Below are positions 10,669 to 60,168 of a stretch of DNA of 64,000 nt, piece after piece. The notes beneath the pieces are model-generated. The model did not search any database and was not told the origin of the DNA. It saw only the letters and a list, made by a program, of their open reading frames with translations. Both the position numbers and the translations under genes were made by a program. How positions within the stretch are numbered: position 1 is the stretch's first letter; each line of letters begins with the position of its first letter. The stretch covers positions 13,125-77,124 of the forward strand of contig JANPLN010000030.1 in NCBI GenBank assembly GCA_031426555.1, written 5' to 3'. This DNA is from Bdellovibrionales bacterium. GTDB lineage: Bacteria > Bdellovibrionota > Bdellovibrionia > Bdellovibrionales > JAGQZY01.

Positions 10669-10710
10669 CCCTCTCTTTTTAAGACGCGTCCATCCCTGGA
10701 CTCGCTTGCA
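10669..10710 (+). repeat. Armless (solo) copy of the giant-hairpin core motif
   Basis: CCTCTCTTTTTAAGACGCGTCCATCCCTGGACTCGCTTGCA aligns with 35477-35516 of hairpin D (CCTCCCTTTTAAGACGCGCCCATCCATGGACTCAGTTGCC). No complementary right arm was found. Confidence 0.7.
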
Positions 10711-10744
10711 AATCGACGATGTATACTAGGCAATTGATACAAAT

Positions 10745-11032
10745 ATGTATTTTATTATGAGGAAAGAAATGGTGCTTGAGGCGTATTTTCAGAAATTAAT
10801 TGACCGGGTGGAACTAGAGATTTCCAATCAGGGGAAAGATGAGAATGGATTTTTTAAGCCGACTAAAACGATTCTGGTGCGGCATTTAAGCACTCTCAAA
10901 GACTTGCACAGCAAGCCTTTGGCAAAAGATATCGTCAAAGCCTCGTGGCAGTACGTGAACGAAAATCTCCCGCCCGAGTGGTTGGTGCTCACACCCACCG
11001 AAAAAGCTGAGCTTAAAAAAATCCTGGCTTAG
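10745..11032 (+). CDS. Hypothetical protein (95 aa)
   Basis: The ORF is not overlapped by any gene call. No motif recognised. Confidence 0.4.
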   Translation: MYFIMRKEMVLEAYFQKLIDRVELEISNQGKDENGFFKPTKTILVRHLSTLKDLHSKPLAKDIVKASWQYVNENLPPEWLVLTPTEKAELKKILA

Positions 11033-11034
11033 AA

Positions 11035-11082
11035 GGTACGGCAAGGGGCAAGGCGCCTTCGGCGCTTAGCTCGCTCCGTACC
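11035..11082. terminator. Nested hairpin between convergent genes (family-2 terminator-like repeat, copy X)
   Basis: Outer stem GGTACGG (11035-11041) pairs with CCGTACC (11076-11082). Inner stem is GCGCC-TTC-GGCGC. The reverse complement aligns over about 50 nt with 60169-60233. Confidence 0.6.
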
Positions 11083-11083
11083 G

Positions 11084-12109
11084 TTAATTCATCTGCTGGG
11101 GAATGCGGCCGGCCATGATTTCGGCAAATGGCTGCGTGGCTTCGATGCGCATAAAGACGATTTTTAACACCGCGGTGATGGGCACCGCTAAAAACATTCC
11201 CGACAGTCCCCAAATTAACGCCCAAAACACCAAGCAGATGAGTACGGTGATGGGATGCAAATCCATAATTTCGCCAAGCACTCGCGGCTCAACGATATTG
11301 CCGATGATAAACTGCATGATTCCCAGCACCGTAAAAATCACAAAAAACTGCCAGCCAAAACCGTAGGAATAAAACACCACCGGAAATGGAAGAGCCACAG
11401 CAATGATGGGGCCCACCGTGGGAATAAAGTTAAGCAGAATCGCCGACAAGGTAAAAATCAAAGCGAGGTCGACCTGAAAGGAACCAAGCATAATCAAAAA
11501 CACGACTCCTGCCGCAAGCGCCAAGAATAGTTTTTTTATAGTGTACTCAAAAGTTTTGATCATAATGGTGCGAATCAACGGTGATTTGATCTGCGCATTT
11601 TGATCGCCCACGATCATAAAAGCTGTGTAAATCAACACCAGCGTAAGATTACCGATGATGTAGAACGTTTGCTGGGTAAAATCGCGCACGTACGACACCG
11701 GGTTGAATTCCTTGGCCTGCGCGAGAATAAATTCTTTATCGATTTGAATTCCCGCCGGTAGTTGTTCTTCGATAGAGGTTAAAATATTAGCGAGATAGTA
11801 TTCGTAGCCTGTGATTCCAGTGATGAGTTGTTTCAGCGCCGGAAACATTATCACGATCACACTGACGATAACTCCCATGACTCCGGCAATGGCCACACTG
11901 ATGGCAAGAGTGCGGGGCAGCCTTAAATGAACTTGAATCCAATAAATGATAGGCGCAAAAATCGCATAGGTAAAAATCGCAAACACAAACGGAACAAGAA
12001 CCGGTTTTGTGTAAGTGAGCACGGAGGCCACAGCAATAATGGTGAGGATGACGAGACAGATCTGAATGGTTTTTGTGGCAGTAGTGATCGAAGTGGCAGA
12101 TTTTAACAA
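11084..12109 (-). CDS. AI-2E family transporter (PerM/YhhT, UPF0118)
   Basis: 341 aa, about 8 TM helices. Characteristic C-terminal block NFIPTVGPIIA...GEIMDLHPITVLICLVFWALIWGLSGMFLAVP. TTG start at 12109 with AGGAGA 7 nt upstream. Confidence 0.75.
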   Translation of the reverse strand: MLKSATSITTATKTIQICLVILTIIAVASVLTYTKPVLVPFVFAIFTYAIFAPIIYWIQVHLRLPRTLAISVAIAGVMGVIVSVIVIMFPALKQLITGITGYEYYLANILTSIEEQLPAGIQIDKEFILAQAKEFNPVSYVRDFTQQTFYIIGNLTLVLIYTAFMIVGDQNAQIKSPLIRTIMIKTFEYTIKKLFLALAAGVVFLIMLGSFQVDLALIFTLSAILLNFIPTVGPIIAVALPFPVVFYSYGFGWQFFVIFTVLGIMQFIIGNIVEPRVLGEIMDLHPITVLICLVFWALIWGLSGMFLAVPITAVLKIVFMRIEATQPFAEIMAGRIPQQMN

Positions 12110-12120
12110 GGTAGGTCTCC

Positions 12121-12142
12121 TAGCAAGGGCTCCGTACCTAGA
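12121..12142 (+). repeat. Partial copy of the family-2 hairpin end (copy Z)
   Basis: TAGCAAGGGCTCCGTACCTAG shares GCTCCGTACC with 11073-11082. It shares CCGTACCTAG with the reverse complement of 59942-59951. Confidence 0.5.
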
Positions 12143-12173
12143 TCATCAGAGATCTAAAAGTTAAAATCAATAT

Positions 12174-12617
12174 TTATTGAAAAAGACCGTCGAAGAGTTG
12201 TCCAGGCTGAGTTGGAGTGATCGTCGGAGTTATTACAGAGATCTGCGATCCAAAGCTCACTGGAGTGGCTTCTGCGCTAGGTTCAAAATTTGGTTGGTTT
12301 TGTTTAACGAAGCCTGCAAATTCAACATTGTTGTCAAAGAAGCGAATTTGTCCTTCGAACTCTTCTACAAACTGATTGATCATTTTTGGAGTGGCTTTTC
12401 GCGAGAAAATTTTGAGGTCTTCGTAGCAACCAGAAACATTGCCCGCTTGCGGTGTTGGAGCCCAGTAAGGAAGGTTGTCTTTGTTGAGAACTGCAATCAT
12501 CACGTTTTCGCAGGCTTCGAACGTCGGGATTTCATGATCCATCTCATGACCTTGGATATGGTGGGCATGGGCGGTGGTGGCGAAACTTACAAACAAGAGA
12601 GTAAAAAGCGTTTTCAT
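12174..12617 (-). CDS. Secreted hypothetical protein with His-rich mature N-terminus
   Basis: Signal peptide MKTLFTLLFVSFATTAHA followed by HHIQGHEMDHE. No family recognised. Confidence 0.5.
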   Translation of the reverse strand: MKTLFTLLFVSFATTAHAHHIQGHEMDHEIPTFEACENVMIAVLNKDNLPYWAPTPQAGNVSGCYEDLKIFSRKATPKMINQFVEEFEGQIRFFDNNVEFAGFVKQNQPNFEPSAEATPVSFGSQISVITPTITPTQPGQLFDGLFQ

Positions 12618-12792
12618 GTGTACCTCGTAATATGGAACAATTGATACAGAGGTTCGCGAAGAATGAAAAATTATTCGTTGGAATCATCATTCATCAGTTT
12701 TTCTTCTGCGATAATAAATTACTCAGTATGAAAGATTTTCACTAAGTAAAGGGTGATGGTGACCTTGGAATTGTGAAAAACAGGAGTACACT

Positions 12793-13050
12793 ATGCCTAT
12801 GAGTAAAAATTTATGGTTTAAAAAGAAAACGTACGGGTGGGGATGGACACCCTGCAATTGGCAGGGCTTCGTTGTCGTTGGTTTGTACGTAGCCGCTTTA
12901 TGTTTAACAGTCTGGTTTGTAAGAATAGGCATTTTCGAATGGACTCCAACGCAGCTCACCATAGCTATTTTCGCAGAGTTCGCTGTTTTGGTCGCTATTT
13001 CCTACGCCAAAGGCGAAAAGCCTTCCTGGAGCTGGGGCCGATCAAAATAG
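12793..13050 (+). CDS. Small membrane protein (85 aa, two hydrophobic helices)
   Basis: GGAG 8 nt upstream of ATG 12793. Two TM-like segments (FVVVGLYVAALCLTVWFV, IAIFAEFAVLVAISYA). Confidence 0.45.
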   Translation: MPMSKNLWFKKKTYGWGWTPCNWQGFVVVGLYVAALCLTVWFVRIGIFEWTPTQLTIAIFAEFAVLVAISYAKGEKPSWSWGRSK

Positions 13051-13094
13051 CTTTGGGAACCAAATCACTGCCGCTACGGCATTAGGAGCTTCAT

Positions 13095-13229
13095 CAAGTT
13101 TCAATGGTTTCTTAAAAAAGGATGGATTAAAAAGGTTTTTAAAAACGAGTTCCGCAGCGAAGCGAGGACTGTCCGAGATTTTTAAAGACCTTTTTAATCC
13201 ATCCTTTTTTAAGAAACCATTGAAACTTG
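13095..13229. repeat. Giant hairpin A: 51-bp stem, 33-nt loop
   Basis: 13095-13145 pairs with 13179-13229 (position sum 26324), with a single G-T at 13137/13187. Loop is CGAGTTCCGCAGCGAAGCGAGGACTGTCCGAGA. It ends 3 nt from the ychF stop codon. Confidence 0.95.
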
Positions 13230-13232
13230 CGA

Positions 13233-14333
13233 CTAAACATTAAACCTGAAGAAAAGAACGTCGCCGTCTTTGACGATATATTCTTTGCCTTCGAGGCGGT
13301 ATTTGCCTGCGTCTTTCACGGCTTGTTCGCTTTTGAGGGTGAACAGGTCGGCGCAGTTGTAGGTTTCGGCGCGGATGAAGCCTTTTTCAAAGTCAGTGTG
13401 GATGACACCTGCCGCTTGTGGAGCCTTTGTGCCCTTGCGAATGGTCCATGCGCGCACTTCTTTTTCGCCAGCGGTGAAGTAGGTTTGCAGACCTAACAGC
13501 GCATAAGCTTCGCGGATGAGGCGGTTCAGGCCGGGCTCGGTGACGCCGAGGCTTTCTAAAAACTCTTTGCGCTCTTCGACAGGCAGCTGAGCGATTTCGG
13601 CCTCCATAGAGCTACAAATGAGAATGGCCAAATTGTTTTCTTTTTTTGCAAATTCAATCACGGACTTCGACCAGTCGTTTCCGCCCTTGGTGAAATCACT
13701 TTCGCTCACGTTGCAAACGTACAACGTGGGTTTTGATGTGAGCAGATGCATCCCTTTTACGACGGGTTCGGTTTGCTCGTCGGTTTCCACAATGCGGGCC
13801 GGTTTTCCAGCTTCGAGAGCCTGTTGGACTTTTATAATGATATCAAGCTCGGCGATCTGTTTTGGATCCTTGCTGGATTTTGCGGTTTTTTCGATGCGCT
13901 GACGGCGTTTTTCCACAGAATCAAGATCGGCGAGCATGAGTTCGGTGTTGATCACTTCGATGTCGCGAATGGGATCCACGGAGCCCGACACGTGGATCAC
14001 ATCGGGGTCGTCGAAGCAGCGTACAACCTGCACGATGGCGTCGGTTTGACGAATGTTTGCGAGGAACTGGTTACCCAAGCCTTCGCCTTTACTCGCGCCC
14101 TTAACGATCCCTGCGATGTCGACAAACTCGATGGTGGTGGGGATTACGCTCTGGGGTTTGATAAAGGTACATATTTGATCCAAGCGCACATCAGCCACAG
14201 TCACCACGCCCACGTTGGGGTCAATGGTGCAAAAGGGGTAGTTGGCTGCTTCGGCTTTGGCCGAAGTGAGCGCGTTGAAAAGCGTGCTTTTTCCGACGTT
14301 TGGTAATCCAACAATTCCGCACTGAAGACTCAT
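13233..14333 (-). CDS. ychF: Ribosome-binding ATPase YchF (Obg-like GTPase family)
   Basis: [23 protein letters not shown]... P-loop, full-length 366 aa, with the characteristic C-terminal TGS-like end [11 protein letters not shown]. Confidence 0.95.
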
Positions 14334-14932
14334 GGCGTGTCCTTTGGTTTTAGAGAATTAAAATAATTCGCTGTTTTGTCGTACCCTTGAAAGATTAAAG
14401 ATTCAACAGCGTCGAGAGCCGTGTTTAGAAAATCTGGGAGTTGCGCGCTTTCGTCTTTGCTAAAATTGCTCAGGACGTGATCAGCCACATCGATATTGGG
14501 ATTGGTGGGGCGGCCGACGCCAAGTTTGATTCGAAAATATTTGTTGTGACCTAATTTTTCGTGGATGTCCCGAATACCGTTATGGCCACCGTGGCCTCGG
14601 TCCTTTTGAATTTTAAGCTGAGCAAATGAAAAATCGATTTCGTCGTGCAAAACAATTATCTGACTGTGCTCGATTTTATAAAAGTCGCAAAGACTGCGCA
14701 CGGGATCGCCCGAAAGGTTCATAAACTCTTGCGGTTTGCAGAAGACAACTTTCTGCGACTGTTTATTGTCCTCGGAATGCAGAGTGAGGTGAGTGGTGAG
14801 GGCTTTTAGTTCTTTTTTTTCGGGGGGCGCGTTGACGGACTTCAGAAACGTATCCACAGCCATAAAGCCGATATTGTGGCGATTGAGAGCATATTTAGAG
14901 CCAGGATTGCCAAGACCGACGATAAGCCACAT
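14330..14932 (-). CDS. pth: Peptidyl-tRNA hydrolase
   Basis: MWLIVGLGNPGSKYALNRHNIGF... and ...GHGGHNGIRDI are canonical Pth motifs. There is a 4-nt overlap with the ychF start. Confidence 0.95.
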   Translation of the reverse strand: MWLIVGLGNPGSKYALNRHNIGFMAVDTFLKSVNAPPEKKELKALTTHLTLHSEDNKQSQKVVFCKPQEFMNLSGDPVRSLCDFYKIEHSQIIVLHDEIDFSFAQLKIQKDRGHGGHNGIRDIHEKLGHNKYFRIKLGVGRPTNPNIDVADHVLSNFSKDESAQLPDFLNTALDAVESLIFQGYDKTANYFNSLKPKDTP

Positions 14933-14949
14933 GTTTTCTATCCATAACG

Positions 14950-14972
14950 AAAAAAGCCCGGGTGAGCGGGCT
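14950..14972 (-). terminator. Rho-independent terminator downstream of rplY
   Basis: On the minus strand: AGCCCG-CTCACC-CGGGCT followed by TTTTTT. A second small hairpin GTCTTTTC/GAAAAGAC lies at 14990-15013. Confidence 0.6.
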
Positions 14973-15020
14973 TATGTTCAGTGAGCAAAGTCTTTTCAAA
15001 TAAATGAAAAGACAAACTAA

Positions 15021-15701: not shown

Positions 15702-15729
15702 AGGTCCACCTTTTTATATTTAAAATTCA

Positions 15730-20409: not shown

Positions 20410-20451
20410 AAAGGTGCAGATGGTCGACTGGCACATGACGACATGCCCAAC

Positions 20452-20616
20452 TTTACAGCACTTTAAGTTTCTGAATTCTTCCAAAAACTCAAATTGTAAG
20501 GAAAAAGACCTCTCGCCAACAGGATGTTGGATCTGCGAGTTGAGCCCACGACGGGCGCGTCTTTTTTCTTACAATTTGAGTTTTTGTAAGAATTCAGAAA
20601 CTTAAAGTGCTGTAAA
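20452..20616. repeat. Giant hairpin B: 58-bp stem, 49-nt loop
   Basis: 20452-20509 pairs with 20559-20616 (position sum 41068), with one mismatch (20481/20587) and one G-T (20501/20567). The right arm covers the last 5 codons and the stop of the gspN-like gene. The loop contains the core motif on the minus strand. Confidence 0.95.
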
Positions 20617-21591
20617 ATTAGGCATTGGGTCGCTAAATCCGTTCGCCTGGACGCGAAATGCGTAGCGCAGGCCTTCGCTGGTGGTTGTACTGTATTTGCC
20701 GAGATATCCTTGAATGGCATCAGCGGCACTGCCGAGCTTGGCTTGCATGGATTTTTTTAAATTTAAATCCACAGCCAAGCTGTAGAAGCCAACGGTGGGA
20801 GTTCCTCCGGGGAATACACGGATGTCCATTTCACCGGAAATTTTTAAAATCATCTCGTCAGAGCCACTGCCGAGCTGAGTCTCTTTGAGCAAAAGCTTTC
20901 CATTCTTTAACGTGCCTTTGAGAACGACTTTTTGAAAACTCATGGCGGGAAGAGCCATGGGGCCAAAACCCGTTGCGATTTCGAACTGCGGAATGATCAA
21001 TTTTGCCAGGCTCATTTCAATCACGCCCTCGGGCTGGGTTTTCATCGATGGATCCAAATCCATCTTCGCGGTCAGTTGCCCGAGCGCAGACGGGGATACC
21101 GGCCAGTTGGGGCCCAAACTTTTTGCGAGAATTTTAACATCAAAATCAGAGTAGTTCAGATCGAGCTCGATCGCCTGCGGATCTTTGATTTTTGAACTCG
21201 CACTGGTTGAGGCCTCGAGCGTTCCGCCAAAAAGACCTTCAGCATCGATGTTGACGTGGGGCTTTAGAACTTTGGTAAAAGCAAATTGAATACAAGCGAG
21301 CACTGATGGTGCCACCTTCAAGTACTTCACTTCGACCTGCTCGATCATAGGACTTTCCACCAGCGCTTGCTTCATGATGACGGCTGGACGGGGAAAAAAC
21401 GACAGGTCCATGCTCTCAAATTCTAGATAAATAAGGCCACTGGCGTTGGTTTCGGCGACGATCTTTTCGCCAAGCTCAGTCAGTGGAAAAAACACCACGG
21501 AAAAAACCAAACAGCACAACAAAAACATGACGATCTTCATTTTGTGAAACAAAAAAATCGTCTTTATAAAATCAATCACTGTTCGTAGCAT
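20602..21591 (-). CDS. gspN: Type II secretion system protein N-like
   Basis: 329 aa with a single N-terminal TM. It is the last gene of the gsp operon, directly after gspM. Assignment is by position and topology only. Confidence 0.5.
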   Translation of the reverse strand: MLRTVIDFIKTIFLFHKMKIVMFLLCCLVFSVVFFPLTELGEKIVAETNASGLIYLEFESMDLSFFPRPAVIMKQALVESPMIEQVEVKYLKVAPSVLACIQFAFTKVLKPHVNIDAEGLFGGTLEASTSASSKIKDPQAIELDLNYSDFDVKILAKSLGPNWPVSPSALGQLTAKMDLDPSMKTQPEGVIEMSLAKLIIPQFEIATGFGPMALPAMSFQKVVLKGTLKNGKLLLKETQLGSGSDEMILKISGEMDIRVFPGGTPTVGFYSLAVDLNLKKSMQAKLGSAADAIQGYLGKYSTTTSEGLRYAFRVQANGFSDPMPNFTAL

Positions 21592-33272: not shown

Positions 33273-33431
33273 GGGTGTATCCTCAATTTGGCAAGTCCAT
33301 AGAACGAATGATTTCGAGCTGACTCTTCGTTACTTCTCCTCACGTTAGCGTTTCACTACCGTTTCGTCGTCGCGCCTCGATTCAGCTCGAAATCATTCGT
33401 TCTATGGACTTGCCAAATTAAGGATACACCC
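33273..33431. repeat. Giant hairpin C: 50-bp stem, 59-nt loop
   Basis: 33273-33322 pairs with 33382-33431 (position sum 66704), with one mismatch (33284/33420). It begins 26 nt upstream of the gspD ATG, in the gspD/gspC divergent intergenic region. Confidence 0.95.
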
Positions 33432-33498
33432 TATTAAACCTTAAAAAAATAGAGAGCTTAAGCACGAACTCACCGAATGACCTTTAGCGGGGCCTAGG

Positions 33499-33569
33499 TC
33501 GAGTCCAATAAGACTCGACCCCAAAAAGACGCGAGTCCAATAGGACTCGACCCCAAAAAGACGCGAGTC
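33499..33569 (+). repeat. Tandem 32-bp repeat (2.2 units) of the hairpin-core motif
   Basis: GAGTCCAATA[A/G]GACTCGACCCCAAAAAGACGC occurs at 33501-33532 and 33533-33564, then GAGTC. Each unit holds a 7-bp mini-hairpin (CGAGTCC...GGACTCG) and the AAGACGCG motif. Confidence 0.9.
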
Positions 33570-34748: not shown

Positions 34749-35438
34749 ATGGGGATGAGCACTGTATTAATGTTTACAGGTCGCAGTGGGGTAGATCAGT
34801 TAGAGTTTCGTCAGCAGTTGTTGCGGGTTCCAGAAGTGTCGATCACTCTGAAAACGGCGCAAGCAATTCTCGAAGCCAGCCAGCACAAAGAAGCAAAAGA
34901 GCTTATGAGCTTGGCGCACTACGAAACAAACGAATATTTATCTGCCGGTCTTTGGCGAGATTTCTTAGCGCAATTGATGCAAATCGGTCTTTATCGTCGT
35001 TACGAAAAATTATCAGCCCGACCACAATATATAATCGGCGACTCTGGCGAATGCTCAGCTTCAGCTGTGTGTTTAGGAGCCATGACTCTCGAAGAGTACG
35101 TGGGGCGCTTTTTGGAGCAGCTCGAAAAACGAAACGCCGAAGAACAATCCAAGGAATTTTTAGTTGGTCACCGTTTAGAAAGTGCAAAAATTTACGAGCG
35201 CACGTTTGAAGGCTACGTCGTTAAATCCGAAGGCAAAGATCTCTGGAGTTTGTTTGATGATCTTCGCAAAGATCATTTGATCGACCAGATAGTCACCCTG
35301 GGCACAGCACCAAGTAACAACTGGCACATCGAGCAGGATCTCGGCATGGTGGAATCGGTTGTGATGGATCCTTTGCTCAGCTGGATGCTACCTTACTTGC
35401 GTTCTAGCACTGTGCCGCTGAATGTGGCTTACGGATAG
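34749..35438 (+). CDS. Hypothetical protein with remote resemblance to the N-terminal half of malonyl-CoA:ACP transacylase (FabD/AT fold)
   Basis: By eye: VLMFTGRSGVDQ matches FabD FVFPGQGSQ, and YIIGDSGECSASAVCLGAMTLEEYV matches FabD MAGHSLGEYSALVCAGVIDFADAV. It is only 229 aa and the GHSxG nucleophile elbow is altered (GDSGE). Confidence 0.3.
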   Translation: MGMSTVLMFTGRSGVDQLEFRQQLLRVPEVSITLKTAQAILEASQHKEAKELMSLAHYETNEYLSAGLWRDFLAQLMQIGLYRRYEKLSARPQYIIGDSGECSASAVCLGAMTLEEYVGRFLEQLEKRNAEEQSKEFLVGHRLESAKIYERTFEGYVVKSEGKDLWSLFDDLRKDHLIDQIVTLGTAPSNNWHIEQDLGMVESVVMDPLLSWMLPYLRSSTVPLNVAYG

Positions 35439-35444
35439 ACTGCG

Positions 35445-35581
35445 ATTTTTAACTTTTAGATACAATTTTTTTAGAACCTCCCTTTTAAGACGCGCCCATC
35501 CATGGACTCAGTTGCCCCCGTCCGGGTCGCAAAGGTCTTAAAAGGGAGGTTCTAAAAAAATTGTATCTAAAAGTTAAAAAT
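35445..35581. repeat. Giant hairpin D: perfect 47-bp stem, 43-nt loop, flanked by 7-bp direct repeat
   Basis: 35445-35491 pairs with 35535-35581 (position sum 71026) with no mismatch. The loop carries AAGACGCGCCCATCCATGGACTCAG. GACTGCG occurs at 35438-35444 and again at 35582-35588. Confidence 0.95.
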
Positions 35582-35725
35582 GACTGCGTTTGCTTAGCAA
35601 ACTTAGACTACTGCCGAAGCGGAAGTACTTGCGCGTTGGAAATTATTTCGAATCTTCCAATTCTGCCAAGAGACTTCATGGAAGTTCCAAATGTCCAATG
35701 ACTCACGTCCACGAATGTATCCTAA

Positions 35726-36844
35726 TTATAGATGCACAAAATTAAAATCAGGGGCTGTCGACATCGGGTTTGGTTTTAAAAACGATGGCAGATCTTCTTC
35801 GGGGGCCAGGACCGAGTAGAAGCCGTAGGGCACTTTGGTGGAAAGAAACGTCAATGGGGCGCGGGTGGTGTAGTCGCCAAAATAATTGGTGTGGGCGAGG
35901 AGTTCGCCGCGAGCGGATTCTTCGTAGGCTTGGCACAACAACGAGTAAAACACTTCGTGGTTATCGGCTGCACAGTGAGTTAAAAAACTCAGCGAAAAAG
36001 TTTGATCCACAGCAGGCAACGGCTGCGAAAAGCCTAGCAGCGATGAAAGTTTGCTGGATTGATAAAGCAGTAAGCCTTCGGAGTGGTATTTTTTGGCGAT
36101 GACTTGTTGAGTGCTGCCACTATTCCAGGGAGCCACACAACCCACAATTTGTTCTTTTGAATTTCGCGCAATTAAAAAATTGTTTAAACTGAAGTCGGGC
36201 CAGGTTTTAAATTTTTGCTCCAATTGCTCGGGAGTGATATTAAAGTACAGCCGACTGCCGATCTTTTTTTGCATCATGTAGTTGCACAGCTCTTCCATAT
36301 CTTTTGGCAGAGCGTGACGAATGCGAATGGTGGGCATGGGGGCGGGCGACCACGGCCAGCGACCCAAAAAATAAATCATATTCACTTTGCGATAAAGATA
36401 GTAGTGCGGTAGTTGGCGACGAATTTTTCGCGGGCGTAAAAGCGCATTGTAAGCCTGGTTTTCAAACTGCTCGATGGCGGTAAAAACATAGCGACAGTTT
36501 TTTTCGGCAATTTTTTGATACAGATACGGAACAAAATGTTGAGCCCATTGGAGAACGGCAATCCGTTGGGGAGCAATTCGTAGATCACACAGATAGCCCA
36601 CAGTTTGCTCTTGGCGATTGAAGTAAGCGCGCTGAAAGCAGATGGTGGCTGCGCCAAGAAGAGTTTCGCTGTCGTCCATCAGTAGAACAGTGGTGAAGTC
36701 GTCGCTGAAGGTGCGATAGTGATTAAAAAAATTCCCCACGCGGTGAATAGAAAAATCAACGTGTCCATGGACGATCTGTTCTTCGTAAAATCTTTGCAGG
36801 AGAAGGGAGTGCTTCTCTTCGGCCTCGACCAGCTTGAGTTGCAT
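35726..36844 (-). CDS. Hypothetical protein, possibly tandem GNAT-like acyltransferase fold
   Basis: 372 aa. Two halves each show beta-alpha patterns reminiscent of GNAT/FemX-like folds (LLGAATICFQRAYFNRQEQTVGYLCDLRI... and IVGCVAPWNSGSTQQVIAKKY...). No catalytic motif was confidently identified. Confidence 0.3.
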   Translation of the reverse strand: MQLKLVEAEEKHSLLLQRFYEEQIVHGHVDFSIHRVGNFFNHYRTFSDDFTTVLLMDDSETLLGAATICFQRAYFNRQEQTVGYLCDLRIAPQRIAVLQWAQHFVPYLYQKIAEKNCRYVFTAIEQFENQAYNALLRPRKIRRQLPHYYLYRKVNMIYFLGRWPWSPAPMPTIRIRHALPKDMEELCNYMMQKKIGSRLYFNITPEQLEQKFKTWPDFSLNNFLIARNSKEQIVGCVAPWNSGSTQQVIAKKYHSEGLLLYQSSKLSSLLGFSQPLPAVDQTFSLSFLTHCAADNHEVFYSLLCQAYEESARGELLAHTNYFGDYTTRAPLTFLSTKVPYGFYSVLAPEEDLPSFLKPNPMSTAPDFNFVHL

Positions 36845-50178: not shown

Positions 50179-52147
50179 ATGGCATCCGTTCGCATCACTC
50201 TCCCAGATAATTCCATCAAAAGCTTCGATCAATCTCCGACTATTTTACAAGTGGCTGAAAGCATCGGACCCGGCCTCGCAAAAAACTGCGTGGGTGGTTG
50301 TATCAATGGCAGTAAAGAAATTATTGATCTTCGCACCCCCTTGAGTGATGGCGATCGCCTCGAAATCGTGACTTCTAATTCTGAAAAGGGACGAGAGGTT
50401 CTACGTCACTCGGCTGCCCACATTATGGCGCATGCGGTGCAGGAATTATTTAAAAATGTAAAGGTGACCATCGGGCCCGTCGTGGATGATGGTTTCTACT
50501 ACGACTTCGACCCTGAAACTCCGCTCACTTTGGCTGATCTGCAAAAAATTGAAGATCGCATGTACGAAATCATCCAGCGCAATGTTCCGCTGGTGCGTGA
50601 AGTGTGGCCCTCCGACAAAGCGGTCCAAGTTTTTGCCGACATGGGCGAGAGTTACAAAGCCGAAATCATCAGCGATCTAAAAACATCCGAAGTCTCCATT
50701 TATAAACAAGGCACATGGTTTGATTTGTGCCGTGGGCCCCATGTGCAAAGTACTGGGCAAGTGAAAGCCGTGAAAGTGATGTCCATCGCCGGCGCCTACT
50801 GGCGGGGAGATCAAAAAAATAAACAACTTCAGCGCGTTTATGCGACGGCTTTCAACGACAAAAAAGAACTCAAAGAGCACCTAAATAATCTCGAAGTCCA
50901 AAAAACGCGATCACCGAAAAATCGGCAAAGAGCAGGGACTGTTTATGTTCCACGACTGGGCGCCAGGCATGCCGTTTTTTACTGCCAAGGGCACGGTGAT
51001 TTACAACGAACTTGCCAATTACATTCGCGAGCTCTATCGCAAGTACGATTACAAAGAAGTGATCACTCCCCAGTTGTACGACTCGAATCTGTTTATCACC
51101 TCTGGTCACTACGGCCATTACAAAGACAATATGTACTTTAGCGAAGTGGGCGACAACAAAACAGAAGTGGGCGTCAAACCCATGAATTGCCCTGGCCACT
51201 GTTTGCTTTTTGATTCTGAAAAACACTCGTATCGCGATCTTCCTTATCGAATGGCTGATTTTGGCAGGCTCCACCGCTATGAGGCGAGCGGCGCGCTGGC
51301 GGGTCTCACTCGCGTGCGTTCCATGTCGCAAGATGATGCCCATATTTTTTGCACCGACGAGCAACTGCAAAGCGAGATGGAAGGTTTCATGACTTTCCTC
51401 AAGGAAGTTTACTCGGCCCTCGGTATGTACGAGTACAAAGTCTACATTGCTACACGCCCAGCCAGCCGCATGGGGTCCGATGATTTATGGGATCGCGCTG
51501 AAGGTGCTCTCACAGGCGCCATGGATAAATTGGGCGTACCTTACCAAATCAATCCCGGCGACGGCGCCTTTTACGGTCCCAAGATCGAAGTGCATTTTGT
51601 CGATGCCATGAAAAGAACCTGGCAGCTCGGAACTATCCAGGTGGATTACAATTTACCTAAAAATTTCAATCTCACCTATACTGGCGACGACAATACAGAG
51701 CATATGCCAGTTGTACTTCACCGCGCGATTTTAGGAACGCTTGAGCGCTTTATCGGAATTTACATCGAGCAGTGTGCTGGCAAATTCCCTCTCTGGTTAT
51801 CACCAACACAAGCGGTGATTCTGAATGTGACGGACCGACAAACGGAGTATTGCCTCGAACTCAAAAAGAAACTCGTCGCTCAGGGTGTGCGCGTTGAGTA
51901 TGACAGCCGCAACGAAAAGTTGGGTTACAAAATCCGCGAAGCCCAATTACAGCAAATGCCTTACATGTTGATCATCGGCGATAAAGAAATGGAACAGGGC
52001 TGTGTTTCTGTTCGTTTGCGCTCAGGTGAGATGATCAATTTTATTCCTACCGATGAATTTATTAATAAAGTTGTGGGTGAGATCAAAACTCGTCAGCTCA
52101 CTTCTGTTTTTGAAAATGCGAACTCAACAAAGGAGATAAGCCATTAA
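50179..52147 (+). pseudogene. thrS: Threonine--tRNA ligase, reading frame interrupted by a +1 shift in an A6 run (50900-50905)
   Basis: ORF 50143..51141 carries the TGS and editing domains up to ...KELKEHLNNLEVQK. ORF 50945..52147 (frame +1) carries the class II core and anticodon domain. Frame 2 already reads RDHRKIGKEQGLFMFHDWAPGMPFF from 50906. Deleting one A restores LEVQKRDHRKIGK, which matches the conserved ThrRS junction. Confidence 0.85.
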
Positions 52148-54823: not shown

Positions 54824-54862
54824 ACTGTTAGTTTTTTGAAACTAAATCTTTAGGGATTAATT

Positions 54863-55888: not shown

Positions 55889-57210
55889 AATCTCTGTTCA
55901 AAGGATTTTCGAAACTCAAGCGCTCAGAGCGCTTTCAAAAGCTTGTAGAAATTGGCGCTTTGGATTCGTCGGATGTTTCGTTTCTTAAAAATGGCGGAAT
56001 CAAAGACTTCGACATGGCCGATAACTTTATCGAAAACTCCATCGGCTATTTTCAGCTTCCGCTGGGCGTGGCTACCAATTTTCGCATTGATGGCGTTGAG
56101 TATGTGATTCCCATGGCGGTGGAAGAAACCTCCATCATTGCAGCTGCTAGTAAGACCGCGCGCTGGATTAGCGAACGTGGCGTGATCACCACCGAAGTGA
56201 TTGGCGAAAATATTATCGGGCAGGTACAAATTGCCCGCGTGAAAGATTTTTTAAAACTTCAGACGGTTCTCGAAGCAAAAAAACAACATTGGATCGATGA
56301 ACTGAACCAAGTTGTAGCGCAGGGAATGTACGCGCGCGGCGGTGGCGTCCGCGATATCGTCGCTCGACAAATCACCAGACCCGATGGCGATGTGATGGCC
56401 ATTTTACATATTCATTTAAATCCGTGCGACGCCATGGGCGCCAATATTATCAATCAGGTTTGTGAGTACATCACCGGCCCCATCGAAGAAGCCACTGGCG
56501 AAGCCGTCACCATGCGCATTCTCTCAAACTTAGTGGATACAAAACTTACGAAAGCGCGTGTTGAGATGCGCGGGATCGACAGCAAAATTGGCGAGGCCAT
56601 TCAAGAGGCGTCGCTGTTTGGCGAAATTGACTCCTATCGTGCGGCCACCAACAACAAGGGTGTTCTCAATGGCATTGATCCCATTCTTATCGCCACAGGC
56701 AACGACTGGCGCGCGGTTGAGGCGGGCATACATGCGTTTGCGGCGCGTGATGGTCAGTACCGCTCGATCACCAAGTGGCGCTTTGAAAATAACATTCTCA
56801 CGGGCGAGTTTTTAGCGCCGCTCATCGTCGGCACGGTGGGTGGTGTGACGACCCTTCACCCAACAGCAAAGATGGCCATGAAAATGATGAAGATCGAAAG
56901 CGCCAATCAGCTTTCGCGCGTTTGCGCCAGTGTAGGCTTGGTACAAAATTTGGGAGCTCTCCGGGCTCTGACTTCCGAGGGCATTATCGAAGGTCATATG
57001 AAGCTGCATATCAAAAACCTGGCCATGGGCGCAGGTGCCAGCGAGCAGGAATCGCCGACGCTGCATAATCTCCTTGAACAGGTTCTTAAGGCTAAAAAAA
57101 GAATTTCACTTTCGGATGCGATTCAAATGCTAAAAAATATTCGTTCGGTGAAAGACTCGGTGAAAGATCCGATGAGAGAGACAGCTAAGCATGTCACAAC
57201 TCCGTCTTAG
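55873..57210 (+). CDS. mvaA: Hydroxymethylglutaryl-CoA reductase, class II
   Basis: ENSIGYFQLPLGVATNFRIDG..., PMAVEETSIIAAAS, DAMGANIINQ and TVGGVT are class II HMGR blocks. 445 aa. Confidence 0.9.
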   Translation: MENEIKSLFKGFSKLKRSERFQKLVEIGALDSSDVSFLKNGGIKDFDMADNFIENSIGYFQLPLGVATNFRIDGVEYVIPMAVEETSIIAAASKTARWISERGVITTEVIGENIIGQVQIARVKDFLKLQTVLEAKKQHWIDELNQVVAQGMYARGGGVRDIVARQITRPDGDVMAILHIHLNPCDAMGANIINQVCEYITGPIEEATGEAVTMRILSNLVDTKLTKARVEMRGIDSKIGEAIQEASLFGEIDSYRAATNNKGVLNGIDPILIATGNDWRAVEAGIHAFAARDGQYRSITKWRFENNILTGEFLAPLIVGTVGGVTTLHPTAKMAMKMMKIESANQLSRVCASVGLVQNLGALRALTSEGIIEGHMKLHIKNLAMGAGASEQESPTLHNLLEQVLKAKKRISLSDAIQMLKNIRSVKDSVKDPMRETAKHVTTPS

Positions 57211-58075
57211 CCTTCCCAGTAAAACCTTTCTACTTGGCGAATATTTAGCCCTTTCCACTGGTCCCTCTTTCGTGGTTGCCACAGAACCTCGATTTGAATT
57301 CAAATTTTGTGTGGGCGATTTTTTAAAAACAGTTCATCCACAAAGTCCAGCTGGTCTTTTTTATAAAAAATGTCAAAAAGATGTTGGCCCGATGCAAATC
57401 GAAATGACCAAGCCCACAAAAAGTATTGGCGGTTTTGGAGAATCAACGGCGCAGTATTTGGCTTTGTGGCATTATGCAAAAGCCGTTAAAAAAAAACAGC
57501 CAATGGATGTGAATGCCCAGTTTGTCGAAGAGTGCTGGCAGGATTATCGCGATTTATTTCCCCAGGCACCGCCCAGCGGTGCAGATCTTATCAATCAACT
57601 TTGCGGCGGCCTGACGGTTTGGGATCCCATTAAAAAAGATGTGCAAAAGTATGAGTGGCCCTTTCCCGATCTGAAACTTTATTTGCTAAAAACATCCCAT
57701 AAAATCAAGACCCACGAGCACCTGGCATCCATGGACCCCGAGTCCATTCCGACGGCGGCGTTGAGCGAAATTATGCAAAATGCTTTAGTGGCCTTAAAGG
57801 AAAAAAATTCCGTTGGTTTTCTGCGCCAATCCATCATGTACACAGAAGAGCTTTATCGCGCGGGTCTGCAATCTCCAGACACGATGGTGCTGATTGGTAA
57901 GATCGCCACGCGGGCCAATGTTCTCTGCGCACGGGGCTGTGGAGCCCTGGGGGCCGATGTGATTGCCGTATATGGTTCACCCGGTGCCGAAATTGATTTT
58001 TCGGATCTTTCACTCACACCTGTTGCCACCCTGCCAGAGAGTATAAGTTCGGGACCCGTTTGGCGGTGGTCGTGA
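57191..58075 (+). CDS. GHMP-family kinase, probable phosphomevalonate kinase
   Basis: SKTFLLGEYLALSTGPSFVVA resembles the PMK N-terminus GKLxLxGEYAVL. The GHMP motif is degenerate (GGFGESTAQYLAL). It lies between mvaA and mvaD. Confidence 0.65.
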   Translation: MSQLRLSLPSKTFLLGEYLALSTGPSFVVATEPRFEFKFCVGDFLKTVHPQSPAGLFYKKCQKDVGPMQIEMTKPTKSIGGFGESTAQYLALWHYAKAVKKKQPMDVNAQFVEECWQDYRDLFPQAPPSGADLINQLCGGLTVWDPIKKDVQKYEWPFPDLKLYLLKTSHKIKTHEHLASMDPESIPTAALSEIMQNALVALKEKNSVGFLRQSIMYTEELYRAGLQSPDTMVLIGKIATRANVLCARGCGALGADVIAVYGSPGAEIDFSDLSLTPVATLPESISSGPVWRWS

Positions 58076-59055
58076 TGTGGGAAGCATCGGCACCTGCAAA
58101 TATCGCCCTTATTAAATATATGGGGAAGCGCAGTTTCAGCTCTGCAAACACCACTCAAGCGAACGTCAACGTCGCGATAAATCCTTCGGTCTCTTGGACC
58201 TTGGATCACCTGCGAAGTTTTGTGCAGCTAGAGCTTGTTGACGCCAACGAAGGCCAGAGCGACCTGTGGCAGCCACATCCCCAATGGGCGTTAGAAATGA
58301 GTGAAGTGGGGCTACAGAAATATCTTGCCCATCTTCAACGCGTAAAAAAAATGTTTTCCGCCGAAAACTATTTTTTTAAAGTGCGATCGGGAAATAATTT
58401 TCCAGCAGATTGCGGAATCGCCAGCTCGGCTTCGAGTTTTGCAGCGTTGACTCTCGTGTCGTCGCAAGCTCTGGCGCACTTGACCAAAAAGCCTCTTCCA
58501 GCGATGGAGACCCTTGCAGATTTGAGTCGACAAGGCTCCGGCTCGTCGTGCCGCTCGTTTTTTTCGGGTTTTGTAGTTTGGGAAGAGCAGGGCGTGCGAA
58601 AACTGCCAACAACTACTACGCTTCACCACCAAGTCGTCATCGTGAGTGGCGATAAAAAACAAGTGTCTTCGTCACAGGCCCATCAACGAGTTCAGTCGAG
58701 TTTACTAATGAAGCAACGGGAAGAGCGTGTTCAGGTGCGTTTTACGTCGCTGTGTGAGCAACTACTCAGTGGCACCCCCGATTGGAAAAAGTTATATGAA
58801 CTCACGTGGTCGGAATTTTGGGACATGCATGCTCTCTTCGAAACCAGTGACCCCTCCTTTGGCTATATGACATCAAAATCGCTGGAGGTTCTGAATATCG
58901 TGCGCGAATATTGGCTGCAAAAACAGGACGGCCCTCTCGTGACCATGGACGCAGGCCCCAATGTGCATTTGTTATGGCGACACGATCAAAGGACCATGGC
59001 CCAGGAGTTTGCAAAAGCAAACCCGCAATGGAAGTGGATTGAGGACGCCCGATGA
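58060..59055 (+). CDS. mvaD: Diphosphomevalonate decarboxylase
   Basis: ASAPANIALIKYMGKR, GIASSASSFAALT and GSGSSCRS are MVD signatures. Confidence 0.88.
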   Translation: MAVVVMWEASAPANIALIKYMGKRSFSSANTTQANVNVAINPSVSWTLDHLRSFVQLELVDANEGQSDLWQPHPQWALEMSEVGLQKYLAHLQRVKKMFSAENYFFKVRSGNNFPADCGIASSASSFAALTLVSSQALAHLTKKPLPAMETLADLSRQGSGSSCRSFFSGFVVWEEQGVRKLPTTTTLHHQVVIVSGDKKQVSSSQAHQRVQSSLLMKQREERVQVRFTSLCEQLLSGTPDWKKLYELTWSEFWDMHALFETSDPSFGYMTSKSLEVLNIVREYWLQKQDGPLVTMDAGPNVHLLWRHDQRTMAQEFAKANPQWKWIEDAR

Positions 59056-59945
59056 GGTCGCCAATTGAGGAAACCATGAGTTTTAAGCATCGAGTTTTTG
59101 GCAAATGGATTTTAGCCGGCGAGCACGCTGTGCTTCGCGGTCACACGGCCATGGTGTTTCCAGTGACGTCTTGTTACTTCGAAATTGAATACAAACCATC
59201 TTCCAATAAAATCAATCTCACTTGTGATTCAGATCAGGGTGAGCAAATGAAAATGGTTTTTATGGGTTTGCTGAACAAAGCACTTTCGGATCTCGGCAAA
59301 GAAACCACGGAGCTCACTGGCGAGCTGAGTATTTTCAATCGCATCCCCTTGGTCGGTGGGATGGGCGCGAGTGCCGCTATCTGCGTATCCGTCGTAAAAT
59401 TTTTAAATTATTTAGGATTTGTGGAAGAGGATAAAGTTTTTTCATTCGCCAAGTCCTTGGAAGATTTGTTTCACGGTGAGAGCAGCGGCGTGGATGTGGC
59501 CATTGCACTTCAAGCTCGTCCTTTGCTTTATAAGATTGGCGAATTTATTCCCTTTGATCCCCAGTGGAAACCCTATTTGTATTTATCCCATTGTGGAAAA
59601 CGTGGAGTCACAGCCGATTGCATTCGGCGGGTTAAAAAATTATGGCAAACCAATGAAAGTTTGGGCCAGATGATTGATCTCGATATGCAACGCAGCTTTG
59701 AACTGGCGCAAAAAGCCCTGAGCAGACCCGATTCGATGCATGAACTCCAGCAATCCATTTTGCTCGCGCGATCCTGTTTTGAGCGCTGGGGCTTGGTGAG
59801 TGTGGAGTTGAGCGAGCACATGAACGAGCTTCACAAGCTGGGCGCCATTGCCACCAAGCCCACCGGCAGCGGCGATGGCGGTTTTGTTTTAAGCCTCTGG
59901 GACCAGAAGCCCACTACCACATCGATCGACCTCCTCGAGTGCTAG
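59052..59945 (+). CDS. mvk: Mevalonate kinase
   Basis: GKWILAGEHAVLRG (MK N-terminal motif), GHMP motif PLVGGMGASAAICVS, and C-terminal KPTGSGDGG. Confidence 0.8.
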   Translation: MRSPIEETMSFKHRVFGKWILAGEHAVLRGHTAMVFPVTSCYFEIEYKPSSNKINLTCDSDQGEQMKMVFMGLLNKALSDLGKETTELTGELSIFNRIPLVGGMGASAAICVSVVKFLNYLGFVEEDKVFSFAKSLEDLFHGESSGVDVAIALQARPLLYKIGEFIPFDPQWKPYLYLSHCGKRGVTADCIRRVKKLWQTNESLGQMIDLDMQRSFELAQKALSRPDSMHELQQSILLARSCFERWGLVSVELSEHMNELHKLGAIATKPTGSGDGGFVLSLWDQKPTTTSIDLLEC

Positions 59946-59951
59946 GTACGG

Positions 59952-60168
59952 ACACACTTTTTGGGACTCATTGCATAAAATTTCTTGCACGAGAATTCCT
60001 TAAACCTTTTATTTATTTCGCAGCACTCGCGGACACGGGCTCGTCTTCGTAGGTCGTCATTGCATGACGCCCCACGGATACGCCCCGTTCGCACGTGAGC
60101 TCGTAAATAAAAAGTTTAAGGAATTCTCGTGCAAGAAATTTTATGCAATGAGTCCCAAAAAGTGTGTG
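59952..60168. repeat. Giant hairpin E: 65-bp stem, 86-nt loop, inserted in a family-2 hairpin
   Basis: 59952-60016 pairs with 60103-60167 (position sum 120119), with one mismatch (60006/60113) and a terminal G-T. Flanked by GGTACGG (59945-59951) and GGCACGG (60169-60175). The loop carries the core motif on the minus strand. Confidence 0.95.

Follow-up and report, generated by a model that had tools for sequence, protein, structure and literature searches.

Giant hairpins parked at gene ends in a Bdellovibrionales chromosome probably belong to a known kind of bacterial repeat

Five giant hairpins lie in a 64,000-nucleotide stretch of the core chromosome of an uncultured Bdellovibrionales bacterium (the window), which raises the question of whether they form a new architecture, a conserved centre with a stem that is free to vary, as the initial annotation proposed, or belong to a class of repeat already described. 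The analysis places them in a known kind of bacterial repeat. We consider it fairly probable (about 60%) that they belong to several related families of small palindromic repeats that are non-coding, MITE/REPIN-like and specific to a Bdellovibrionales lineage, with arm pairing kept by copying at the DNA level.

Five inverted repeats and their setting

A repeat search of the window recovered exactly the five near-perfect inverted repeats described before, with hairpin B extended 9 nt further outward on each side. On a common scoring scheme the five hairpins scored 46–60, whereas the best of the other inverted repeats in the window reached 12 and dinucleotide shuffles (n = 20) at most 11–14, and RNA folding yielded −77 to −169 kcal/mol (z = −14 to −17). 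All five are genuine and far beyond chance. The arms contained 19–45% GC and no T-runs followed them; 96.2% of the 1144 arm pairs were Watson–Crick, and G·T (9) and A·C (10) mismatches were balanced, with no wobble bias. The reported position at gene boundaries was borne out: four of the five hairpins were placed at the 3′ end of a gene, in three cases between a convergent pair, with A, B, D and E at or near stop codons and C in a divergent intergenic region.

Hairpin A (13095–13229, no strand assigned; arms 13095–13145 and 13179–13229, 51 nt, 98% matched with one mismatch, loop 33 nt) lay between convergent ychF, with its stop codon (13233–13235) 3 nt away, and a small plus-strand ORF. In hairpin B (20443–20625, minus strand; arms 20443–20509 and 20559–20625, 67 nt, 94%, four mismatches, loop 49 nt), the proximal arm held the last seven codons and stop (20602–20604) of a 329-aa T2SS-N-like gene, and the distal arm (20443–20467) repeated the final 25 nt of this gene in inverted orientation. 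Hairpin C (33273–33431, no strand assigned; arms 33273–33325 and 33379–33431, 53 nt, 96%, two mismatches, loop 53 nt) occupied the divergent promoter region between gspD-like and gspC-like genes. Hairpin D (35445–35581, plus strand; arms 35445–35491 and 35535–35581, 47 nt, 100%, loop 43 nt) lay 6 nt after a stop codon and was flanked by a 7-bp direct repeat, GACTGCG (35438–35444 and 35582–35588; 35438–35588 overall). Element E (59939–60237, no strand assigned) was composite, comprising a base stem (GCTAGGTAC.. / ..TTACCTAGC), a giant hairpin (59941–60178; arms 59941–60015 and 60104–60178, 75 nt, 92%, GC-rich loop of 86–88 nt) with the stop of an ispE-like gene in its left arm, and a GC-rich side module of 53 nt (60179–60231). 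This side module also occurred in L082, L085, L069 and L029; 4/4 copies had the same orientation, and loop inversion is therefore infrequent.

The window also contained a truncated, armless core (10674–10745, plus strand) downstream of an SLT-domain gene, and two tandem 32-nt units (CGAGTCCAATAGGACTCGACCCCAAAAAGACG; 33500–33563, minus strand) that were an insertion relative to L039; on the minus strand one unit reads as a terminator-like hairpin of canonical form with a T-run behind it.

Core modules and the likeness to TwoAYGGAY

Searched with a covariance model of 22 related cores, the window matched only at B (minus strand, 20510–20558; 68 bits), D (plus strand, 35492–35534; 63 bits) and the truncated 10674 copy (29 bits). 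These three shared a homologous GC-rich core, as the earlier alignment of centres had indicated, but the "six cores" of that alignment did not hold together as a single family: in the window the loops of E and C and the units at 33501–33569 were unmatched, the loop of A was matched only at E = 1, and the tandem units were ruled out as a type-1 core. The tandem units and the loops of A, C and E are modules different from the type-1 core. The GC-rich loop of A (13146–13178; CGAGTTCCGCAGCGAAGCGAGGACTGTCCGAG) was a "type-2" core that recurred with unrelated arms in L001 (2458–2609). The loop of C was unrelated to the other cores, and no second copy of C was found among the window and the compared relatives' sequences.

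The type-1 module (B, D, 10674), the commonest, was a two-hairpin core of ~50 nt closed by AAGAC/GTCTT; seen from the complementary strand, A(N)GGA stands in each of the two apical loops. The fold paired in 93% of cells, compared with 34–52% in slid controls, and 11 pairs had changed on both sides versus 4.3 in shuffles (0/500), with covariation in both small hairpins and the closing stem. Copies dispersed at gene boundaries were found in the window, in line with the initial description, and in related genomes. The relatives' sequence (218 kb) gave 25 core-model matches, nearly all at the apex of 27–78-bp hairpins with a 50-nt loop, and matches to the core pattern were confined to three related Bdellovibrionales MAGs, besides chance matches in high-GC genomes. 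All comparison sequences were metagenome assemblies, in which chimeric joins at repeats are possible (L070 and L094 are suspect). Relative to the abutting gene, the UCC strand was in mRNA sense at 13 loci versus 3 under a nearest-gene rule, and at 7 versus 3 in unambiguous tandem contexts only; this bias is non-random and hints at transcription-linked selection.

Such cores could belong primarily to structured RNAs related to TwoAYGGAY (Rfam RF01731, PMC2864571), in which a two-hairpin core with A(N)GGA loops on a long P1 would be selected for its fold and act as a regulatory or sponge RNA or a 3′-UTR element, a reading we regard as possible but rather unlikely. No Rfam family attained its gathering score on the hairpins. 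TwoAYGGAY was the sole bacterial family to match repeatedly, always on the strand complementary to AAGACGCG (L024, 32.7 bits; L069, 33.7 bits; L084, 32.4 bits). In TwoAYGGAY too, two small hairpins carry a GGA-containing hexamer in their terminal loops, and the closing P1, near-perfect and poorly conserved in sequence, is "often very large (24 bp with only 2 mismatches)" and tiny in some representatives (Weinberg et al. 2010; PMC2864571 supplement); at least one genome (Psychromonas ingrahamii) carries the motif in several copies. An architecture of this kind, with a conserved two-hairpin core on a very large and poorly conserved stem, had thus already been described, which counts against the initial interpretation (PMC2864571 supplement, PMC4333381). 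Short colinear blocks comprised UUUA, GCAA, AAACA(U)GGAUGUUU, CAUGGAUG and GCGU-UAAAAAG, the aligned blocks including CCAUGGAUGG and GCGUC, and Psychromonas copies with AAACAUGGAUGUUU corresponded to the Bdellovibrionales family with AAACAGGAUGUUU. In this comparison the complementary-strand core profile outscored 1000/1000 shuffles and the other strand found nothing. The A(N)GGA loops have a predicted CsrA/RsmA-type binding design; for TwoAYGGAY itself, CsrA binding is only a proposal (PMC4333381). The covariation in both small hairpins and closing stem, the module-specific conservation and the biased core orientation also fit an RNA.

However, the TwoAYGGAY model was matched at only 28–34 bits, below the 43-bit gathering threshold. 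Only the type-1 copies resemble TwoAYGGAY, A, C and E having other cores; hairpin E nevertheless scored 27.9 bits, so the score derives mostly from a generic long AT-rich stem. The second loop here is CAGGAU rather than AYGGAY, one third of the loops are CGA, and GGA stands in both loops in only 13/24 cores, with CGA as the alternative (partly a hand count). P1 reaches 78 bp here versus ~24 bp, and the host is a member of the Bdellovibrionota, whereas TwoAYGGAY is hosted by Clostridia, Gammaproteobacteria and gut metagenomes. Most often the GGA strand runs antisense to the gene that the element abuts. A perfect dsRNA helix of 50–78 bp would be an RNase III substrate. RNA-level compensatory evolution would not lead one to expect transversions and an 11-nt indel mirrored in both arms, or arms with no G·U excess.

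Arm conservation, insertion and copying between arms

Across ~25 copies in related genomes the arms were modular, with conserved termini, a conserved inner 13 bp and a variable middle. Among E-type copies (n = 8, two MAGs) identity was 0.91 in the outer arm (~27–37 bp in the E subfamily), 0.62 in the middle (shuffled, 0.49), 0.98 in the inner arm (TTCTTTTTAAGAC; 98% conserved) and 0.92 in the core. Arm termini were common across loci and species: E-type termini occurred in at least nine copies in related MAGs, those of E (TAGGTACGGACACACTTTTTGGGACTCATTGCATAAA) showed 100% identity over 37 nt with non-orthologous copies of another species, and the B terminus was common to L007 and L042. The orthologue of E in L024 had the same outer arms, different inner arms and a type-1 core. 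Within the window the arms look dissimilar by eye, as reported, except for a weak similarity between the outer arm of A and the B-type terminus (z = 2.9, p = 0.015), but this dissimilarity did not extend to related genomes. Arm sharing there had been named beforehand as evidence against a free-to-vary stem, and it was largely found (E termini, inner arms and B terminus); the picture of a conserved core with unrelated arms largely reflects which copies were sampled.

Selfish decay alone leaves the contrast between 91–98% conservation in termini, inner arms and core and 62% in the middle unexplained, and this pattern suggests host-level or RNA-level function. In hairpin D, 0/29 positions of the outer and inner arms had changed, with four-fold sites diverged by 23–35% (P = 5e-4 to 4e-6); the arm middle (10/18 changed) evolved faster than four-fold sites (P = 0.003–0.06), which neutral drift with conversion does not predict.

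Empty orthologous sites, proposed as a check, were found for C (L039, L089 and L090, all clean), for B (L093, the closest relative, with the same T2SS-N-like gene end) and for A (L002/L003). Compared with these sites, C is a complete palindrome inserted specifically in the window lineage, with arms unrelated to the local flank, and A was probably inserted likewise. Target-site duplications were absent, C included, except for the direct repeat at D, which suggests complete-palindrome insertion; L089, which at this locus has the core with only 9-bp arms, would allow flank copying at D, and L088 has no element there. The sequence examined, which covered less than the whole source genome, yielded no transposase, no RAYT and no other mobilising gene.

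Orthologous hairpins had 14 positions changed on both arms versus 3 on one arm only. The D orthologues (L039, L086) contributed 10 + 2 double-arm changes versus 1 on a single arm, with 5 transitions and 5 transversions among the double-arm changes in D. In the B orthologue (L096/L002), substitutions and an 11-nt indel were mirrored between the arms, and the core was inverted. The gene end captured by B is ancestral, being identical in hairpin-free L093, and its distal copy follows lineage-specific synonymous codons. From the mirrored substitutions and indel, the inverted loop and the captured gene end we infer arm-to-arm DNA copying by template switching, a process that creates and maintains perfect hairpins (PMC8794818, PMC5941160). 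The near-perfect arms are best explained by such copying rather than by a new architecture.

A broader form of copying, in which the GC-rich core nucleates fold-back replication of one flank and all arms are locally derived and hence unique, seems improbable. It accounts for the distal arm of B, for inverted repeats that run 4–18 nt past the conserved termini into unique flanks (L015, L024, B), for L089, where a left-arm homologue of D is present and the right arm is missing, and for L019, whose right arm repeats, in reverse complement, a flank that is homologous to the left flank of armless L001/L034; the direction of change at L019 and L089 is, however, not polarisable. The arms of C, and probably A, have no counterpart in the empty sites, the direct repeat at D points the same way, and E-type and B-type termini and inner arms are common to unlinked copies. 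The armless 10674 copy is a deletion derivative rather than a precursor: its conserved sequence ends on the right at ~10716, its orthologues have a full core with arms of 45–51 bp (L019) or without arms (L001/L034), and it lost the right core half and right arm through deletion between CGA microhomologies. Inverted copying of an arm or flank, an alternative offered by the initial annotation, thus stands for the gene end of B, the mirrored changes and the right arm of L019, but not as a general origin, given the whole-palindrome insertions of C and probably A.

That the hairpins are ordinary, if long, bidirectional intrinsic terminators is very hard to credit: their frequent position at gene 3′ ends and the resemblance of the E-type base (AAAGGTACGG / CCGTACCTTT) to small terminator-like hairpins of these genomes would fit, but no GC-rich stem with a T-run was called at B, D or E, near C only the tandem unit (33532–33549) was called, the arms are AT-rich and lack T-runs, C sits in a divergent promoter region, and close relatives lack hairpins at the same sites.

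Place among bacterial palindromic repeats

The hairpins resemble several described systems in part. REPINs, or REP doublets (Bertels & Rainey 2011, PMC3116915), are likewise non-coding extragenic hairpins near gene 3′ ends with highly conserved ends, a less conserved spacer apparently constrained by length and pairing only, common compensatory changes, no target-site duplication, and decay to singlets or armless remnants; unlike them, the elements here have AT-rich arms of 47–78 bp instead of two GC-rich REPs, a conserved GC-rich apical module and no GTAG head. REP dimers in long palindromes (Anabaena variabilis GTAG-15, Halothiobacillus neapolitanus CGTC-1; Di Nocera et al. 2013, PMC3733652) also centre a longer palindrome on small GC-rich palindromes, the composite being repeated in the genome, but their outer palindromes fit one consensus throughout, whereas the arm middle varies here, and their central units are bona fide GTAG or CGTC REPs. 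The Correia/NEMIS, ERIC and RUP MITEs share the 100–300 bp size, terminal inverted repeats, intergenic position, co-transcription with neighbours, presence or absence between strains and, in one copy (D), direct repeats at the ends; they differ in that target-site duplications are generally absent here, the whole element is one near-perfect hairpin, and no cognate insertion sequence is known for the Bdellovibrionales hairpins. Template-switch (quasipalindrome) mutagenesis (PMC8794818, PMC5941160, PMC8604942) explains multi-base compensatory changes, arm homogenisation, flank expansion and spacer inversion, all four of which are present here; it is a mutational mechanism rather than an element family, and comparative patterns point to it in this case.

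In each element, AT-rich arms close a GC-rich module of small hairpins. The elements sit at gene ends, where many of them supply the stop codon or overlap it, and the arm termini and inner 13 bp stay conserved between copies as the middle drifts. Pairing would be kept by copying one arm from the other, through intramolecular template switching at replication or arm-to-arm gene conversion, and such copying would mirror substitutions and indels and could invert the loop or extend the palindrome outward into the flank.

Giant hairpins and their gene setting

A repeat search of the window recovered the five giant inverted repeats where the initial annotation had placed them, namely hairpins A (13095-13229), B (20443-20625), C (33273-33431), D (35445-35581) and E (59941-60178). 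Their arms of 47-75 nt, with 92-100% complementarity, enclosed loops of 33-88 nt. The five repeats scored 46-60 under a single scheme, compared with 12 for the next-best inverted repeat of the window; the best inverted repeats in 20 dinucleotide shuffles of the window scored only 11-14, and the predicted folds of A-E gave z = -14 to -17. The repeat finder also returned a weak overlapping palindrome in coding sequence (52026-52101; 42-nt arms, 71% complementary), which is probably not significant.

All five hairpins abutted a gene boundary, as first claimed. The window genes were housekeeping genes (ychF, pth, prs, ssb, a type II secretion operon, the mevalonate pathway, L20/IF3 and others), and YchF of the window matched proteins of Bdellovibrionales/Bdellovibrionaceae MAGs at 76-96% identity; the window belongs to the core chromosome of an uncultured member of the Bdellovibrionales. 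No transposase or RAYT (Y1 transposase) was present among the Pfam families listed for 60 window genes, the tRNA/tmRNA scan gave no match, and no ORF was found within the elements.

Syntenic contigs were recovered from at least four related lineages, including G (GFS_9251; L019, L039), J (GCA_013565735.1, ERZ27268117, L002), K (GL114, L001) and VAR_79, with four-fold-site divergences from the window of 0.23-0.53. L086, a separate MAG (GCA_043720855.1), was near G at the D locus. L070 and L094, with non-complementary flanks at contig ends within a multi-copy repeat, were left out as possible assembly chimeras. Viral-contig scans with the core of A and the arm of C gave no match, nor did BLAST of elements with E termini (E-type) against plasmids and phages, and a metagenome scan with the E terminus returned only two matches, both chance, in coding sequence. 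A literature search on Bdellovibrio repeats found nothing specific.

Cores, arms and termini among copies

The type-1 core, a GC-rich core of two small hairpins, was defined from 22 copies in the relatives. It consists of AAGAC-GCG, hairpin 1 (GYCCA-TCCN-TGGRC), CTC, hairpin 2 (CTCGCA..AAACA-TCC-TGTTT-GCGAG), AG and GTCTT. Its pairing held in 93% of cells compared with 34-52% when partners were slid, and 11 pairs had changed on both sides compared with 4.3 ± 1.4 in shuffles (0/500). Enrichment of the core motif AAGACGCG in the window was weak by itself (7 vs 2.7 expected, 3/100 shuffles), so a covariance model was used in its place. In the window this model matched only B (68 bits), D (63 bits) and a truncated, armless copy at 10674-10745 (29 bits); the E loop, the C loop and the tandem 32-nt units at 33500 were unmatched, and A was reported only at E = 1. 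Thus the six-member core alignment proposed initially holds for three members (B, D and the 10674 copy). The loop of A is a second core (type 2), common only to an L001 hairpin that lies elsewhere in the B intergenic region. The type-1 model gave 25 matches in 218 kb of related genomes, where the core was almost always at the apex of a near-perfect 27-78-bp hairpin with a 50-nt loop.

By a nearest-gene rule, the AAGACGCG strand of the core had the mRNA sense of the adjoining gene at 13 loci vs 3; in unambiguous tandem contexts the same orientation was seen at only 7 vs 3, which is not significant. At L007 6361-6692 and L055 1388-1719, two back-to-back hairpins per intergenic region carried cores of opposite orientation, and in the L007 pair the AAGACGCG strand of each core matched the nearer of two convergent genes.

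The initial annotation saw no relation between the arms of different copies, and the related genomes contradict this. Across eight E-type copies from two MAGs, identity was 0.91 in the outer termini, 0.62 in the arm middle (0.49 when shuffled), 0.98 in the inner 13 bp and 0.92 in the core; 37 nt of the window E terminus were 100% identical to non-orthologous copies at other loci in another species, and the window and two MAGs together held E-type copies at at least 10 loci. The B terminus TTTAAGTTTCT..GAATT also occurred in L007 and L042, and the D arm was similar to that of one of the two L055 hairpins (L055a). The arms of A and B showed weak mutual similarity. Shared termini were assessed for the E- and B-types only, A and C being single copies in the sequence compared. 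Element termini held stop codons in both directions (CTAGGTACGG...CCGTACCTAG, CTTTAAG...CTTAAAG), and several genes terminated within them.

Beside E, a GC-rich side module of 53 nt (60179-60231), with two small hairpins in a GGGCA/TGTCC stem, was inserted between the giant hairpin and the E base stem. Side modules of 53-57 nt were present in L082, L085, L069 and L029 and missing from L015 and L024. The E orthologue in L024 was followed by eight tandem 11-nt units (330-420; TACTGCCTAGC) that repeat the terminal CCTAGC of that element. Small AAAAGGTAC-loop-GTACCTTTT hairpins at L001 15380-15400 and L041 1544-1593 were recurrent terminator-like sites in these genomes; their GGTACGG/CCGTACC pairing is also the base of E-type elements.

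Divergence was distributed unevenly along the arms. None of 29 outer and inner positions of the D arms had changed where four-fold sites had diverged 23-35% (P = 5e-4 to 4e-6), compared with 10/18 positions of the arm middle, and the L042 and L055b arms were 89% identical at a four-fold divergence of 55%. These results suggest that more than selfish decay acts on the element termini and core.

Turnover of elements and probable copying between arms

Empty sites, sought in orthologous intergenic regions, were found for C, B and A. C was missing from three lineages, in which the junction was clean and free of duplication, B from the closest relative (L093) and A from J. D was missing from J, and K retained only the core with 9-bp arms. 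The armless copy at 10674 derives by deletion, between CGA microhomologies, from an element whose orthologue in G has 45-51-bp arms.

Small GC-rich modules were gained and lost independently, among them the side module, the pair of 32-nt units at 33500 and, in L039, an insert of 34 nt. The latter, a mini-hairpin at L039 1955-1988 (TCCGTCATCCTGAGTGGCGCAGCGAAGGATCTCG) beside the left end of D, was found in neither the window nor L086 and carried a GCGAAG motif like that of the A loop. At 33431-33503, a 73-nt intergenic block upstream of a gspC-like gene showed 96-99% identity in L039, L089 and L090, compared with only 76-89% for the flanking genes. The block, which gave no Rfam match, may be a conserved leader or a small RNA. 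Directly 3' of it, after GGT|CGAG, lay a hypervariable tandem-repeat site (33500-33563), with two 32-nt units in the window, none in G, unrelated sequence in L090 and at least five 28-nt units in K (L089 1411-1540; CGAGCCATAAAGCGAGACGGGTATTGAT). The A (13095-13229) and D (35445-35726) loci coincided with gene-content differences among relatives, namely DUF2306 and peptidase M90 genes at A (L001 11094-12751) and, at D, GNAT acetyltransferase and HNH/DUF222 genes (L086 1008-2866), a 132-aa ORF (L089 3817-4215) or Rce1-like, GNAT and transpeptidase genes (L090 2942-5061).

Orthologous hairpins changed symmetrically. Between the window and L039, D differed at 10 of 47 positions (5 transitions, 5 transversions), every change being present on both arms, and the hairpin was 47/47 paired in both. 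L039 and L086 differed by two mirrored changes and one single-arm change, and L042 and L055b by two of each. The B orthologue in J was 59/60 paired, with arms homologous to those of the window; they differed from these by approximately 13 substitutions and by an 11-nt indel found in both arms, and its core, 84% identical to that of the window, was inverted. The distal arm of B repeats, in inverted orientation, the final 25 nt of the neighbouring gene, a gene end that is unchanged in L093, where the hairpin is absent. In J the distal copy matched the J gene end at 23/23 positions, including a J-specific CCC codon, and the window copy carried the TTT codon common to the window and its close relative L093.

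In 21 hairpins, 96.2% of 1144 pairs were Watson-Crick, and mismatches in type-1 copies were balanced between G·T (9) and A·C (10). Compensatory evolution of the arms acting on RNA alone is disfavoured by this balance, by the transversions and by the mirrored indel. Since there are mirrored transversions and indels, a coding donor and an inverted spacer, with no wobble excess, we infer that the arms are probably kept paired by arm-to-arm copying at the DNA level. Template switching has been found to give rise to inverted repeats and to perfect, expand and invert them (PMC8794818, PMC5941160, PMC8604942, PMC13100816). Here it would copy one arm from the other and so keep pairing near-perfect, and fold-back copying would extend the palindrome into its flank and could invert the loop. 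The early proposal, in which one arm serves as template for the other, gains support for maintenance and extension but not as a general origin of the arms.

Relation to described families and significance

Among described families, the TwoAYGGAY RNA motif (RF01731) is the closest; it has two AYGGAY terminal loops and a closing stem, P1, that is "often very large (24 bp with only 2 mismatches)" and in some copies small (PMC2864571 supplement). The elements share the large closing stem, with a variable P1 of 27-78 bp, 96% paired, and some short-armed copies (L089, L001, L006/L072/L073). Rfam gave no match to the window at gathering thresholds; permissive thresholds returned generic long-hairpin matches to miRNA precursors, well under threshold, and TwoAYGGAY. 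Scores for the latter (L024, 32.7; L069, 33.7; L084, 32.4; window E, 27.9 bits) did not reach its gathering threshold of 43 bits, and B and D in the window were unreported at E up to 5. The matches in L024, L069 and L084 were always on the complement of AAGACGCG (the GGA strand), with CCAUGGAUGG and GCGUC aligned. On this strand the hairpin-1 loop was AUGGAU (or AGGAU, AGGGAU) in 21/24 cores; the hairpin-2 loop was CAGGAU in 15/24, that is A(N)GGA rather than AYGGAY. Psychromonas TwoAYGGAY copies have AAACAUGGAUGUUU where the elements have AAACAGGAUGUUU; a profile of the complementary-strand core scored the Psychromonas copies above 1000/1000 shuffles, but at only 5-6 bits. Because E, with an unrelated loop, still obtained 27.9 bits, GGA occurred in both loops of only 13/24 cores (a partly hand-corrected count) and the GGA strand was usually antisense to the neighbouring gene, the likeness is a resemblance in design, not membership.

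Like MITEs, the elements are small, non-coding, multi-copy and dispersed, with terminal inverted repeats common to copies (E-type, B-type). Target-site duplication is unlikely to be a general feature: D was flanked by a 7-bp direct repeat (GACTGCG) in three lineages, and none was found at A, C, L007a/b, L055a/b or L042. The E-type flanks are themselves inverted (CTAG.. / ..CTAG, AAAG.. / ..CTTT), so that a TA duplication is indistinguishable from palindrome extension. REPINs have conserved ends and a variable middle kept paired by compensatory changes (PMC3116915), and the elements follow the same logic; the claim that their architecture is the inverse of MITE/REP is not borne out. REP/REPIN sequences are GC-rich imperfect palindromes of 20-40 nt with a GTAG or CGTC head in an inverted pair, whereas the arms here were AT-rich (19-45% GC) and the core lacked GTAG. 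CGCGTC adjoins hairpin 1, but on stems of 4-6 bp, compared with 8-9 bp and AT first pairs in CGTC REP families, and REP membership is rejected on termini and composition. GC-rich palindromic units central to longer palindromes are described in Anabaena and Halothiobacillus (PMC3733652). A canonical intrinsic terminator is rejected, no GC-rich stem-loop with a T-run being called at B, D or E; only the tandem unit at 33532-33549 qualified. An integron attC site, which has RYYYAAC / GTTRRRY end sites and a nearby integron integrase, is rejected on the termini (CAAGTTTC, CTTTAAGTTTC, GGGTGTAT, ATTTTTAAC, GGTACGGACAC), and the flanking genes are housekeeping genes, not cassettes.

These results place the elements in a known class, the intergenic palindromic repeats of bacteria, the main family having a TwoAYGGAY-like core; they do not reveal a new kind of genetic element. 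They document an undescribed repeat family in a poorly known lineage of predatory bacteria, whose copies mark hot spots of intergenic turnover and provide stop codons to adjoining genes. Probable arm-to-arm copying is illustrated with unusual clarity by this natural series of orthologues, which runs through an empty site, an armed copy, an armed copy with inverted loop and a deletion remnant; substitutions and an 11-nt indel are mirrored, the loop is inverted, and a captured coding 3' end tracks synonymous changes.

The comparison suggests that TwoAYGGAY may itself be a dispersed palindromic element rather than a conventional sRNA gene, which would give a testable handle (CsrA binding, transcribed strand) on a motif that has been an orphan since 2010. 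CsrA binding by TwoAYGGAY is a proposal (PMC4333381). It is unlikely, at roughly one chance in seven, that type-1 elements are a mobile TwoAYGGAY-like RNA, that is, a putative CsrA-type protein-binding module, with two A(N)GGA loops approximately 25 nt apart, at the tip of a self-perfecting palindrome that disperses to gene ends and recruits local flank, even coding 3' ends, by fold-back template switching. If true, an orphan Rfam motif would be tied to a mobile element, the copies would form a genome-wide post-transcriptional network, and the elements would represent natural palindrome growth by inverted, not direct, target duplication.
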